A stretch of 64,000 nucleotides of DNA from an uncultured Candidatus Saccharibacteria bacterium (GCA_964629815.1 CAZVTA010000002.1:2096-66095), one strand, 5' to 3'; counted from the stretch's first letter, positions 1 through 4,071 are shown. Translations and numbers: made by a program. Notes: generated from the letters alone by a model not told the origin.

Positions 1-299
1 AATTACCAGATGGAAATGAAAAAGGTTTGGGCTATTCCAATTTCGCTCGCCACTACTTTCGGAATCGTTGTTTACTTTCTCTTCCTCGAGGTACTAAGAT
101 GTTTCAGTTCCCCCGGTTACCGCTATCTCAACCTATATATTCAGTTAAGTGCCACAAGACATGACTCTTGTGAGGTTTCCCCATTCGGAAATCTTCGGTT
201 CAAAGCTTAGTTAGCAGCTCCCCGAAGCTTATCGCAGCTTCTTACGTCCTTCATCGGTATCTTACGTCTAGGCATCCTTTATGTGCGCTTGAGTAACTT
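1..299 (-). rRNA. rrl: 23S rRNA, 5' portion only (gene continues past the left edge of the window)
   Basis: Reverse complement of about 180-299 reads AGTTACTCAAGCGCACATAAAGGATGCCTAGACGTAAGATACCGATGAAGGACGTAAGAAGCTGCGATAAGC...TTTCCGAATGGGGA. This is the conserved 5' domain of bacterial 23S rRNA. The 5' end was placed by recall of the E. coli 5' sequence. Confidence 0.9.
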
Positions 300-546
300 T
301 TTACGTTTGTACATCGTTAAACGATGTACGTGCATTGACAATTAGCCAGTTATTGGTGAATACCATTAACTGTGTAGCTGTAATAGCTACTGCCGTTTGT
401 CATATTTACTTATATTTCCAAATTGTTAAGTTACAAACTTTAGGAGCATCAAAACACATGGTTTTTATGCATATCCTTCAGTTTATGCTGATGGCTGAAT
501 TGCCTTTCGACATACAGACACGTGCCTAAACTCAAGGTACCGTCAA

Positions 547-575
547 AGTTTATCACTAATAACAGAGGCGGTCAA
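547..575 (-). promoter_or_regulatory. Candidate promoter for the 23S rRNA gene (TTGACC-17-TAAACT)
   Basis: On the minus strand, TTGACC (575..570), a 17 nt spacer, then TAAACT (552..547). The hexamers and spacing are the same as the infC promoter in this window. It lies about 240 nt upstream of the 23S 5' end. Confidence 0.35.
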
Positions 576-682
576 GCATATTTAGTTGTCAAACTTGCTA
601 CACTTTTGCCCCTTAGGCGACTGCTCTTTTGCTGGTTTCTGGGCTTCATAGCGACAGATTATTGCCTTTTTAGTACCTACTG

Positions 683-711
683 TTGAAAAAATGCGCAATG
701 TTTAGTACAAT
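683..711 (+). promoter_or_regulatory. Promoter of the tRNA-Ala/tRNA-Ile unit (TTGAAA-17-TACAAT)
   Basis: TTGAAA at 683-688, a 17 nt spacer, TACAAT at 706-711. tRNA-Ala starts 16 nt downstream. Confidence 0.5.
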
Positions 712-726
712 ACATCGGTAATTTCT

Positions 727-803
727 GGGGCGATAGCTCAGTTGGCTAGAGCACCTGCTTTGCAAGCAGGGGGTCCGGGGTTCGAGTCCCCGTCGCTCCA
801 CCA
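727..803 (+). tRNA. tRNA-Ala (anticodon TGC), CCA encoded
   Basis: GGGGCGA acceptor arm pairs with TCGCTCC. Anticodon arm is CCTGC-TTTGCAA-GCAGG, T-arm has GGTTCGAGTCC, and the gene ends ACCA. Confidence 0.97.
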
Positions 804-822
804 CAAATTACGAAACTCATCC

Positions 823-899
823 GTAGGGAAAAGAGAAGCCCGACAAATTTTCACACAAATTTGCCGGCGCGATGAGAAAAACCGTAGGTTTGTCTCATT
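823..899 (+). repeat. Structured two-hairpin repeat element, copy A (between tRNA-Ala and tRNA-Ile)
   Basis: Aligns with 57603-57683 through a shared core AAAGAG.AGCCCGA...CACAC...TTGCC(C)GGCGCGATGAGAAAA(A)CC...GGTT(T)GTCTCATT. Hairpin 1 is CAAATTT-TCACAC-AAATTTG. Hairpin 2 is ATGAGAAAAACC-GTA-GGTTTGTCTCAT. Confidence 0.6.
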
Positions 900-901
900 T
901 T

Positions 902-981: not shown

Positions 982-1009
982 ACACCTTTCAAAGGTGTTT
1001 TTTATTTTT
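982..1009. terminator. Hairpin plus T-run after tRNA-Ile; also lies at the 3' end of the convergent HAD gene
   Basis: ACACC-TTTCAAA-GGTGT followed by TTTTTTATTTTT. Confidence 0.55.
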
Positions 1010-1649
1010 CCAACACTATATCAGCGATAGATGCAACGGCTACTGCACGAATAGTATCCCATCCCTCTAGATTCTCGAAATCTTCGGGCGAAAGTAGGCC
1101 AGTCCCCACACCAATAAAGTCAAACCCGGCATCACGGGCCGCATAAAAATCTGTGGGTGCATCACCGATATATATAACCTCTTTTGGATCGTATCCATGG
1201 CCGAGCAAAGGGTCAAACACTCGTTTATCCGGCTTGTGATGCTGGCAATCATCTATAGTAAACACATGATCAAACGTACCCTGTTCTATTGCATTGTGGA
1301 CAAAATCTCCCGCCAGACTGCGTGTATTAGTAGACGTAACAAGCGCAATTATCTTTCCTGCAGCTCGTAAATTCTTTAGTAATCGTTTTGATTCAGGAAA
1401 AATCTCTTTAGGAAAATTGGGTTTTTCTCGCAGTAAATGTGGCTCTACCCTCTCAAATGGATGGCCATATAATTCTTCAACCATACTATGAAAAGGTTTG
1501 CCCCAAACACGCCGCATGTCATCATCGGTGATTGTTACTCCAAACTCAGTCAGGGCGACATGTTTGTGCTGCTTCCAGACATTCTTAATCGTAGCCACCA
1601 ACGTATCATCAAAATCAAATGCTACTACTTTATAATTCTTGTTTATCAT
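1002..1649 (-). CDS. HAD-superfamily hydrolase (phosphatase-like)
   Basis: 215 aa ORF. HAD motif I VVAFDFDDTLV near the N-terminus and motif IV YIGDAPTDFYAARDAG near the C-terminus. Confidence 0.8.
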   Translation of the reverse strand: MINKNYKVVAFDFDDTLVATIKNVWKQHKHVALTEFGVTITDDDMRRVWGKPFHSMVEELYGHPFERVEPHLLREKPNFPKEIFPESKRLLKNLRAAGKIIALVTSTNTRSLAGDFVHNAIEQGTFDHVFTIDDCQHHKPDKRVFDPLLGHGYDPKEVIYIGDAPTDFYAARDAGFDFIGVGTGLLSPEDFENLEGWDTIRAVAVASIADIVLEK

Positions 1650-1664
1650 ATTCTAGTCGTGAAA

Positions 1665-2111
1665 CTAATCGCTAGTTCCCTTGGTTTGATCCACTAACTG
1701 CTTTGCCAGTTCCAGTCGTTCACGTGCGTCATCCCCGACCGGTTCACTCCCCGAATAAGCATTACCTTCAAGAAATACCGCATATTGCCGCAAAGCACTC
1801 AAGGCAATATGCGACATTTTAGAAGACCACGTAAGATCGAGATAGGCCTCCCTATCCTGACCTACCAACTTAGAGTTTAGTATCGCCTGCTGGCCTAATA
1901 CCTCCAGATTATGAAAGCCCTTTGCTTTAGGCGTCTTCTCTGCGAGCCATTCAAGAAGACCCCCCAGCCTTCCGAATCCATGCCCTTCAAAGACACCGTC
2001 AATAAATGGCTTCCTCCGAGAATAAACAGCAGCGTCAGTAACTAAATACACTTCTTCGGTTGAAGTAAATCCAAGACCCTCTAATCCACCCGATCCGCCT
2101 ATAATTTTCAT
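1665..2111 (-). CDS. Hypothetical protein (148 aa)
   Basis: Intact ORF on the same strand, 15 nt upstream of the HAD gene. I recognise no motif. Confidence 0.5.
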   Translation of the reverse strand: MKIIGGSGGLEGLGFTSTEEVYLVTDAAVYSRRKPFIDGVFEGHGFGRLGGLLEWLAEKTPKAKGFHNLEVLGQQAILNSKLVGQDREAYLDLTWSSKMSHIALSALRQYAVFLEGNAYSGSEPVGDDARERLELAKQLVDQTKGTSD

Positions 2112-2149
2112 ATACTAGCTCCTGCTTATGCAAAAAGTATAACATCAAA

Positions 2150-2187
2150 CAAAAAAGAGCCCTCTCGCAAATGGGCTCTTTTTTTTG
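2150..2187 (-). terminator. Rho-independent terminator downstream of the 16S rRNA gene
   Basis: AGAGCCC (2156-2162) pairs with GGGCTCT (2173-2179) across a 10 nt loop. An A-run and a T-run flank it; on the minus strand the stem is followed by TTTTTTG. Confidence 0.6.
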
Positions 2188-2417
2188 GCTTCTCGGCTCA
2201 ATACAGGCTTGAGCAAACCTTGGTTAAAAACTGAAGTAGTGCAAATCAAACGTCGTTCGGGTACAGAACTGATATCTTGTCCTGCAAGGCAGGATATACC
2301 GAAGGTATAGCTGTGCCGAAGCAGGAGATGTACGTTGTCAGTACTGATGTTACAACGTACCAAGACCGACCTAGCTCTAAGAGTGATTGCTCGACTCTTA
2401 TGCTAGTAATCTCCCTA

Positions 2418-3915
2418 GAAAGGAGGTAATCCATCCGCACCTTCCGGTACGGATACCTTGTTACGACTTAACCCCAATCATCCCCCCTACCTTAGGCCTA
2501 ATCTAGTTAGGACGTCAGGTATTGGTGACTTTCATGGCTTGACGGGCGGTGTGTACAAGACCCGGGAACGTATTCACGGTAGTGTGCTGACCTACCGTTA
2601 CTAGCGATTCCAGCTTCATGCAGGCGAGTTTCAGCCTGCAATCCGAACTGAGACCGGCTTTGATGGGATTTGCTCCCCCTCGCGGGTTGGCTGCCCTTTG
2701 TACCGGCCATTGTAGCGTGTTTGTAGCCCCAGACGTAAGGGTAATACTGACCTGACATCATCCCCTCCTTCCTCCCTGTTGCCAGGGCAGTCTAGCTAGA
2801 AAAATCCAACTAACTATAAGGGTTGCGCTCGTTGAAGGACTTAACCTAACATCTCACGACACGAGCTGACGACGGCCATGCAACACCTGTCACTTGGTTC
2901 CCGAAGGCACACTCTGCTTTCGCAGAACTTCCAAGGATGTCAAGTCTGGGTAAGGTTCTTCGCTTATCATCGAATTAAACAACACGCTCCACCGCTTGTG
3001 CGGGTCCCCGTCAATTCCTTTATGTTTTAAGCTTGCGCTCGTACTCCACAGGCGGGATGCTTAACGCGTTAGCTTCGCTACTACCAGGGTCGATACTGGT
3101 AACAGCTAGCATCCATCGTTTACGGCGTGGACTACCGGGGTATCTAATCCCGTTTGCTCCCCACGCTTTCGTGCCTTAGTGTCAGGAATGAGCCAGTCAC
3201 CTGCCTACGCCATCGGTGTTCCTCCAAATATCTACGGATTTCACTCCTACACTTGGAATTCCAGTGACCTCTCTCATCCTCTAGCTGAACAGTTTAAGAT
3301 ATGTCTGTATGGTTGAGCCACACGCTTTCACATCTTACTTACTCTGCCACCTACGCAACTCTTTACGCCCAGTAATTCCGGATAACGCTTGGATCCTACG
3401 TATGACCGCGGCTGCTGGCACGTAGTTAGCCGATCCTTATTCATATGCTACCGTCATAATCTTCACATATAAAAGCAGTTTACAACCCGAAGGCCTTCAT
3501 CCTGCACGCGGCGTTGCTCCATCAGGCTTTCGCCCATTGTGGAAAATTCCCTACTGCTGCCTCCCGTAGGAGTCTGGGCCGTGTCTCAGTCCCAGTCTGG
3601 CTGATCATCCTCTCAGACCAGCTACCGATCGAAGCCTTGGTGAGCCATTACCTCACCAACAAGCTAATCAGACGCAGGCCATTCCCAAAGCGCATAAAGC
3701 TTTAATCCGAAGACCACATGCGGTATTAGACACCATTTCTGGTGCTTATCCCTCACTTTGGGGTATGTTCCTACGCGTTACTCAGCCGTCCGCCGCTCGT
3801 GTACTTCCACACTATGTTCAATACTTTAAACACAGAGTGGAAGCCTTACCGCTCGACTTGCATGTATTAGGCACGCCGCCAGCGTTCATCCTGAGCCAGG
3901 ATCAAACTCTCCAAA
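2418..3915 (-). rRNA. rrs: 16S rRNA, complete, with no large insertion
   Basis: Reverse complement begins ...AGAGTTTGATCCTGGCTCAGGATGAACGCTGGCGGCGTGCCTAATACATGCAAGTCGAGCG (3910 downward). It ends AAGTCGTAACAAGGTATCCGTACCGGAAGGTGCGGATGGATTACCTCCTTTCT (about 2418). Length is about 1.5 kb; the ends are good to a few nt. Confidence 0.95.
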
Positions 3916-4042
3916 AAGAACTGATACTGTTTTACTTATAAAACTCAGTTTATGAACTGACGTTGATTTGCACTATTCAATTTTTAACGTTCATTTCCTT
4001 TAGAGACACTCTAAAACAGGCAATCCCAAAAGGTCTCCAGCC

Positions 4043-4071
4043 ATATTACATGGCATTTTCGTTATCGTCAA
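4043..4071 (-). promoter_or_regulatory. Promoter of the 16S rRNA gene (TTGACG-17-TAATAT)
   Basis: On the minus strand, TTGACG (4071..4066), a 17 nt spacer, TAATAT (4048..4043). It lies about 125 nt upstream of the 16S 5' end and just downstream of the gyrA stop. Confidence 0.5.

Follow-up and report, generated by a model that had tools for sequence, protein, structure and literature searches.

Predicted transcription signals point to a modular rRNA locus with an opposite-strand tRNA cassette in a Saccharibacteria genome

How is a ribosomal RNA (rRNA) locus transcribed when the spacer between its 16S and 23S genes holds protein genes together with tRNA genes that point the other way? This question is raised by the beginning of a 64,000-nucleotide (nt) stretch of DNA from an uncultured Candidatus Saccharibacteria bacterium (GCA_964629815.1, CAZVTA010000002.1:2096-66095), hereafter the window. 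An earlier note on this DNA had placed the 16S and 23S genes on the minus strand, about 2.1 kb apart, and the Rfam models agree: both genes are on that strand, with the 16S gene upstream, and the gap from its end (2419) to the 5′ end of the 23S gene (303) is 2115 nt. The two co-oriented coding sequences (CDSs) that the note described after the 16S gene, an unknown of 148 amino acids (aa; here p148) and a HAD hydrolase, were likewise recovered, as open reading frames (ORFs) and by the Pfam family HAD_2. The note had also put the two spacer tRNAs on the plus strand in the canonical Ile-Ala order; the strand is right, although the order is canonical in position only, the pair being read as Ala then Ile. 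We conclude from the evidence below that the locus is most likely made up of four adjacent transcription units, in a modular form that would be typical of Saccharibacteria.

The host genome is a member of the Saccharibacteria (TM7), Saccharimonadales-like, and the locus is its single rRNA locus. In a scan with one genome per species, a 24-nt signature of its 16S gene, presumably a TM7-specific primer site, retrieves almost only Saccharibacteria/Saccharimonadales records among the matches listed. Among the matches listed for the 16S gene, moreover, the best identities (88-96%) are every one to metagenome-assembled genomes of Saccharibacteria/Saccharimonadales. The p148, HAD and gyrA proteins are recorded from an NCBI contig of 303,545 nt and from Logan assemblies. 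The locus was compared with ~95 Saccharibacteria rRNA loci from the matches listed, taken as 8-kb blocks, in which blastn and ARAGORN served to place the tRNAs along with the 3′ end of the 16S gene and the 5′ end of the 23S gene.

For the 16S gene, the promoter, the leader-trailer helix and the terminator proposed in the earlier note were all found again, by scanning, folding and covariation. The helix, in which 3959-3989 pairs with 2224-2254, is the strongest inverted repeat of the region. Over 19 distinct sequences (alifold) it has 20 consensus pairs, with 97% of the cells paired and compensatory double changes in 10, the aligned segments having been chosen by loose complementary patterns, a choice that favours pairing at fixed positions but not at variable ones. 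Between gyrA and the 16S gene, the intergenic sequence can be aligned over 26 relatives, of which about 20 keep a −35 element CTTGAC and a −10 element TAnnAT. Downstream of this predicted promoter lies a highly conserved leader box that pairs with the trailer. A conserved box of the 16S leader, TTAAAAAT (3975-3989, minus strand; TTTAACAAT in more distant relatives), is one that we take to resemble the boxA of Escherichia coli. Past the other end of the gene, 82 of 95 surveyed loci, compared with 2% of shuffled sequences, have a G+C-rich hairpin followed by a T-run at 150-260 nt from the 16S 3′ end. The hairpin keeps a constant position across loci, just beyond the trailer segment of the helix, and in the locus L074 the hairpin sequence is homologous to the 16S terminator of the window.

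The candidate 23S promoter at 575..547, also named before, is supported both by the scan and by a conserved alignment in relatives. It aligns column by column with their −35/TG/−10 element, including that of compact loci (L079, L115 and L077) in which tRNA-Ala ends only ~280 nt before the 23S gene. A strict TG-extended motif is present 160-314 nt upstream of the 23S gene in 22 of 36 loci, versus 1.1% of shuffles; a looser measure, a promoter score of at least 9 over 400-nt stretches, was dropped as uninformative because 59% of shuffles passed it. The promoter is also kept where over 4 kb separate the 23S gene from the 16S gene. Furthermore, the 23S leader aligns over its full length with the pre-23S region of 17 relatives, and the alignment is continuous over 303-633. 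This leader carries a box, ACTTAACAAT (424-433, minus strand), which we again presume to be comparable to the E. coli boxA. It should also be noted that a conserved element, GTAGCAA-N-TTT..CA.C, occupies 576-600 (minus strand), just upstream of the 23S −35 element, in most relatives, and that in several it takes the form of a dyad (GCAAATATTGC in L115 and L091; GTAGC...GCTAC in L077). It may serve as an operator, or else be UP-like.

Since the spacer tRNAs lie antisense to the rRNAs, they cannot be made from the rRNA promoters and require a promoter of their own. The promoter (683-711) and terminator that had been proposed for the cassette are borne out by the consensus scan, by a fold of −8.8 kcal/mol and by the relatives. 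Of 71 loci, 49 have a motif of the form TTGNNN-N16-18-TANNAT no more than 70 nt upstream of the first cassette tRNA (2.6% of shuffles); it accompanies co-oriented and inverted cassettes alike, the relatives showing TTGNNN-17-TACAAT upstream of the first tRNA. Downstream of the cassette, 34 of 68 loci have a terminator (0.7% of shuffles), and the hairpin at the junction of tRNA-Ile and the HAD gene is recognisably shared by the window and the locus L126. Within the 98-nt spacer between tRNA-Ala and tRNA-Ile, an 11-bp hairpin was observed at 840-867, which the scan calls terminator-like on the minus strand (867..840); it might block antisense read-through from the HAD gene, or be a structure for tRNA processing.

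For the two protein genes, a candidate extended −10 promoter, TGTTATACT (2144..2136), has a counterpart, TGCTATAAT, at the equivalent place in the locus L134, a comparison of two sequences only. The TGTTATACT element probably drives p148-HAD as a fourth unit.

Taken together, these signals suggest the following organisation (coordinates in Table 1). The first unit, on the minus strand, would start at the 16S promoter and run through a leader of ~120 nt and the 16S gene, with its leader-trailer processing helix, to the terminator at 2187..2150. The second, on the same strand, would comprise p148-HAD and begin at the extended −10 element directly after that terminator. The third, on the plus strand, would carry tRNA-Ala and then tRNA-Ile between the cassette promoter and the terminator at 980-1009, while the fourth, on the minus strand again, would start at the TG-extended promoter and contain a leader of ~240 nt and the 23S gene, presumably with 5S. 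Given that each RNA module would have its own start and stop signals, inversion, reordering and the insertion of cargo genes could occur without loss of expression.

Several observations weigh against this organisation. All of the promoters and terminators named here are consensus matches, and in the window alone promoter-like matches are at chance level (5 found, 6.2 expected). The survey is confined to the ~95 listed loci and their 8-kb blocks, and the shuffles that serve as motif controls keep mononucleotide content only. Among the inverted cassettes, the strict tRNA promoter motif is present in only 5 of 10. The hairpin at 980-1000 has a T-run on the plus strand only and none on the minus strand, and transcripts of the HAD gene could run antisense through the tRNAs toward the 23S gene; in addition, rRNA antitermination complexes might carry transcription past the 16S terminator. 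Nevertheless, all three promoter-like sites sit at conserved positions in relatives, and it is because of this comparison that the signals picked in the earlier note, weak when taken singly, become credible. On this basis we infer promoter and terminator activity for the motifs, and no co-transcription of the 16S gene with the 23S gene.

The same observations bear on the alternative of one long precursor, in which transcription from the 16S promoter would read through 2150-2187, p148-HAD and the antisense tRNAs into the 23S gene, leaving the 23S promoter an auxiliary role and only the tRNAs independent. Such a precursor could draw on the common minus-strand orientation of the 16S gene, p148, the HAD gene and the 23S gene, on the lack of a minus-strand T-run at 980-1000 and on the TTAACAA/TTAAAAA boxes of the two leaders, if these are, as we assume, akin to boxA antitermination sites. 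It would have to cope, however, with the hairpin and T-run that stand past the 16S trailer in 82 of 95 loci, with the terminator-like minus-strand hairpin 867..840 between the tRNAs and with a head-on encounter with the tRNA unit; nor would it account readily for a TG-extended promoter kept ~200-300 nt upstream of the 23S gene, including in loci where over 4 kb lie between that gene and the 16S gene. We therefore consider a long precursor unlikely, and retain the four separate units.

Is the layout peculiar to this genome? The earlier note had measured it against the usual bacterial operon, and this baseline proved to be the wrong one, as long, cargo-bearing spacers are the norm in this phylum (PMC7651992; bioRxiv 10.1101/705046; PMC8172020). 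In the 36 surveyed loci whose 23S start falls inside the 8-kb block, the gap from the 16S to the 23S gene spans 762-6319 nt, its median being 1915 nt, to which the 2115 nt of the window is close, and it exceeds 1500 nt in 23. A further 40 loci show no 23S start for at least 1500 nt downstream, which brings gaps above 1500 nt to 63 of 76 informative loci. Spacer tRNAs (Ala, Ile or Val) on the opposite strand occur in 11 of 71 surveyed loci, the window included, and the order of the tRNAs varies (Ile-Ala, Ala-Ile, Ala-Ile-Val and Ala-Val-Ile). Hence the claim of separate 16S, tRNA and 23S units stands in so far as their signals are conserved in relatives, but not as a special fragmentation, the layout being the norm of the phylum. 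The note had itself remarked that the arrangement would be true but uninteresting if relatives shared it and it was already documented; the comparison of ~95 loci and published reports of unlinked or cargo-bearing loci show that both are so. The window thus holds a normal Saccharibacteria rRNA locus, and there is no call to flag it as misassembled or as uniquely rearranged.

A quick neighbour-joining tree built from the 3′ 800 nt of the 16S gene indicates how such layouts arise. The inverted cassettes are scattered over this tree, each beside co-oriented kin (L126/L095, L114/L086 and L077/L030), and the order of Ala and Ile flips between sister species (L074/L039, L003/L070 and L126/L095), also where both have the orientation of the rRNAs. 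A swap between co-oriented sisters requires more than a single inversion; together, the scattered inverted cassettes and the flips of order argue that inversion and reordering are recurrent. For the window itself, a single inversion of a canonical Ile-Ala cassette was considered and rejected: it would give the positional order Ala, Ile, and the observed order fits instead the inversion of an Ala-then-Ile cassette such as that of L126. Orphan fragments of tRNA-Ala and tRNA-Ile, 16-28 nt long, were seen beside intact genes in L134 (1352-1463, where they occur in both orientations) and in the spacers of L014, L030, L049 and L097. They look like scars of duplication or recombination, and such events at the tRNA genes could drive order swaps and inversions.

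The cargo genes give a more detailed view of this history. The HAD product scores 87.2 bits against HAD_2 (gathering cut-off, 23.8), and its translation has motif I, DxDxT, at D12-F-D14-D-T16; it reached no NCBIfam equivalog cut-off (e.g. 51 versus 225), and its PDB relatives are uncharacterised phosphatases. Some 20 homologues at 74-82% identity were found, and a metagenome scan with the gene returned one already known context and two distant matches. In L126 the order is gyrB-gyrA-DUF212, 16S> Ala> Ile> <HAD 23S> 5S>; in L128 it is 16S> HAD> Ile> Ala>, and in L130 16S> orf212> ... HAD> Ala> Ile> ... 23S>. In L122, L125, L127, L129 and L131 the homologue lies amid ordinary protein genes. When set against L126, the block of the window that consists of tRNA-Ala, tRNA-Ile, the terminator hairpin and the converging HAD gene is inverted as a unit. 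Inverted repeats at the borders of the block were not found in the window apart from the leader-trailer helix.

The p148 product has no match in Pfam, NCBIfam or PDB sequences, and a word-index search returned p148 alone. An exhaustive search of 1.8 billion representatives gave one true homologue, P0004 (155 aa, hence p155), at 39% identity (E = 4e-30); other matches were short stretches of long repetitive or Ig-domain proteins and were discounted. P0004 takes the same post-16S position in L134, and it is because the frame is conserved at 39% identity in that position that we regard p148 as a real gene. Its AlphaFold model is of low confidence (mean pLDDT, the predicted local distance difference test score, of 54). 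L134, an ENA scaffold from another metagenome, has in one piece the 16S end, trailer, terminator, p155, Ile<, Ala< and 23S>, that is, an inverted cassette and the p148 homologue without a HAD gene. The history thus calls for one or more inversions and for each cargo gene to have been gained or lost at least once, in whichever order. A local inversion with gene insertion, as the earlier note proposed, is accordingly upheld for the inversion and for gene gain or loss (L126, L128, L130 and L134), but not for the idea that the separate units were its result. The 16S terminator and the tRNA and 23S promoters are also found in compact relatives, and separate units therefore seem to predate the inversion in the window.

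This leads to a broader proposition, to which we give even chances: that the ground state of Saccharibacteria would be three autonomous modules (16S; tRNA cassette; 23S-5S), even where the genes are less than 1 kb apart and would be classed as linked or operonic. On that view, modularity is the earlier state and permits the recurrent inversions, Ala/Ile swaps and cargo insertions seen across the phylum. Classes of linkage based on distance would then overestimate co-transcription, and the stoichiometry of 16S to 23S rRNA under separate promoters would become a question in its own right.

Could the opposite-strand cassette instead be a decaying relic, with functional tRNA-Ile(GAU) and tRNA-Ala(UGC) genes elsewhere in the genome? 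The orphan tRNA-Ala and tRNA-Ile fragments in the spacers of L014, L030, L049, L097 and L134 do show that duplication and decay take place. The window, however, contains no tRNA fragments, and both of its tRNAs have full, canonical scores (70.6 and 67.1 bits). L134 has an identical tRNA-Ile (100%), the cassette lies between a promoter (10 of 12 matches) and a terminator, and ARAGORN finds no second Ala(UGC) or Ile(GAU) gene within the 64-kb window. Decay is thus highly improbable here. An assembly artefact, whether a chimeric join or a false inversion through conserved rRNA and tRNA segments of this metagenome-derived contig, can be set aside as scarcely credible: rRNA and tRNA genes are classic break points of short-read assemblers, and the Logan contig L001 (run SRR16481184) ends within the 16S gene and within tRNA-Ile, leaving 303-949 unspanned, but this contig comes from an independent assembler and matches the window with 100% identity over 949-2439 (16S 3′ end, trailer, terminator, p148, HAD gene and tRNA-Ile junction), L134 has the same order contiguously in another metagenome and is 84% identical to window positions 1-439, 303-633 aligns continuously with the pre-23S regions of relatives, ten other genomes have opposite-strand spacer tRNAs, and gyrA adjoins the 16S gene in more than 50 surveyed loci, so that L001, L134 and the shared gyrA-16S synteny together make a chimeric join very unlikely.

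Table 1. Features of the rRNA locus, in window coordinates; promoters and terminators are predicted
Feature	Position	Strand	Evidence and remarks
23S rRNA gene, first ~290 nt	1..303	-	Rfam LSU_rRNA_bacteria, 206.9 bits, model 1-288; 3′ side cut by window start
23S leader	304..546	-	Holds conserved ACTTAACAAT box at ~424-433
23S promoter, TTGACC-17-TAAACT, TG (extended −10)	547..575	-	~243 nt upstream of mature 23S 5′ end
tRNA cassette promoter, TTGAAA-17-TACAAT	683..711	+	10/12 matches; ends 15 nt before tRNA-Ala
tRNA-Ala(UGC), anticodon tgc	727..803	+	ARAGORN; Rfam, 70.6 bits
tRNA-Ile(GAU), anticodon gat	902..978	+	ARAGORN; Rfam, 67.1 bits
Intrinsic terminator, tRNA unit	980..1009	+	Scan and folding, −8.8 kcal/mol; between converging tRNA-Ile and HAD gene
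HAD-superfamily hydrolase, 215 aa, subfamily IA-like phosphatase	1002..1649	-	Pfam HAD_2, 1.9e-24
p148, 148-aa ORF	1665..2111	-	No family match; AGGAG ribosome-binding site 2123..2119
Candidate extended −10 promoter TGTTATACT for p148-HAD	2136..2144	-	Sequence reading; directly past 16S terminator
Intrinsic terminator, 16S unit	2150..2187	-	Fold of −17.7 kcal/mol; A-run before, T-run after; bidirectional hairpin
16S processing helix, trailer half	2224..2254	-	Inverted repeat, duplex calculation, covariation
16S rRNA gene, full length, no insertion	2419..3917	-	Rfam SSU_rRNA_bacteria, 1493.8 bits, model 1-1533
16S processing helix, leader half, conserved box TTAAAAATTGAATAGTGCAAATCAACGTC	3959..3989	-	Inverted repeat, duplex calculation, covariation, alignment
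16S promoter, TTGACG-17-TAATAT	4043..4071	-	Consensus scan and alignment to relatives
gyrA, directly upstream of 16S gene	4121..6670	-	Pfam DNA_topoisoIV, 3e-165

Some other features of the window were observed in passing. A 246-aa ORF without a Pfam match (6670-7410, minus strand) lies between gyrB (7410-9371) and gyrA (4121-6670) and shares boundary bases with both; in L126, unlike the window, gyrB and gyrA are directly adjacent. An RNase P RNA (class A, 245 bits) is found at 19442-19780 on the plus strand, and a gene with fused ASCH and RNase H-like (RVT_3) domains (19797-20612, minus strand) converges on it directly afterwards. A tRNA-Arg(cct) gene (35439-35515) stands ~500 nt from a tyrosine recombinase gene (36018-37109; Phage_integrase, 2.1e-47), which may have a housekeeping role of the XerC/D type or mark where an integrated element ends. 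The window also encodes an ATPase of the HerA/DUF87 type (12089-14974), which has 961 aa and a long tail rich in Q and P, and, at 41358-48129, a type IV pilus cluster with T2SSE/PilB-like, T2SSF/PilC-like and PilM proteins. Type IV pilus genes are common in Saccharibacteria.

Much of this layout has precedents. In oral Saccharibacteria, the 16S-23S region has been described as containing tRNA-Ala, tRNA-Ile and tRNA-Val with between one and five protein-coding genes "in various orientations" (Murugkar et al. 2020, PMC7651992). Like the window, the loci of TM7x and HMT-488 have the 16S and 23S genes on one strand and, between them, tRNA-Ala(TGC), tRNA-Ile(GAT) and protein genes (PMC7651992, PMC12424978). 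The oral loci, however, usually have tRNA-Val(TAC), pyrD as cargo and a co-oriented Ala-Ile-Val cassette, none of which the window has: its cargo is an orphan 148-aa gene and a HAD phosphatase, its tRNA pair is on the opposite strand, and ARAGORN finds no tRNA-Val(TAC) in its spacer. This third tRNA is stated "for most all oral taxa", and is thus not a strict requirement (PMC7651992); in our survey it is restricted to a clade at ~85-87% 16S identity. The layout also explains why primers that span 16S-ITS-23S, where ITS is the internal transcribed spacer, fail on this phylum (PMC12424978).

In terms of distance, rRNA genes have been called unlinked when the ITS exceeds 1500 nt, and the Patescibacteria are listed as a clade in which this is the rule (Brewer et al., bioRxiv 10.1101/705046). 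At 2115 nt, the spacer of the window is on the unlinked side of that threshold. Yet most unlinked pairs of complete genomes are more than 6 kb apart, whereas the genes of the window remain neighbours, in order and on one strand. Circularised genomes of the candidate phyla radiation also have tRNAs and protein genes between their rRNA genes, and two Saccharimonadia were scored as "operonic" (Lui et al. 2021, PMC8172020). Both studies classify loci by distance and strand, not by promoters and terminators (bioRxiv 10.1101/705046, PMC8172020), and in a limited search of the literature on Saccharibacteria rRNA loci we did not find a report that promoters and terminators are conserved for each module. 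The layout of the window is a further instance of a documented Saccharibacteria pattern, and the comparative conservation of the signals is the added part. Across ~95 species, these signals offer concrete start and stop sites for studying the balance of 16S, 23S and spacer tRNAs at a single split locus.

The split rRNA operons classically known from small genomes (Helicobacter, Borrelia, Buchnera, Wolbachia and Mycoplasma gallisepticum, cited in PMC8172020) resemble the window in that 16S is transcribed apart from 23S-5S, as we predict here from the DNA, in a reduced genome that has one rRNA copy. Their parts, however, are usually far apart or on different strands; in the window the pieces are adjacent, and only the tRNA module is flipped. 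With the canonical rrn operon (16S-tRNAIle-tRNAAla-23S-5S, made as one precursor), the window shares the 16S-to-23S order, the tRNA-Ile(GAU) and tRNA-Ala(UGC) between the two genes and a 16S leader-trailer helix suited to RNase III-type processing. Where the canonical spacer is at most 1500 nt, typically ~400 nt, and holds only co-oriented tRNAs, that of the window is 2115 nt long and holds antisense tRNAs and two CDSs; it also carries conserved promoter-like and terminator-like signals, with two predicted terminators and at least two predicted internal promoters.

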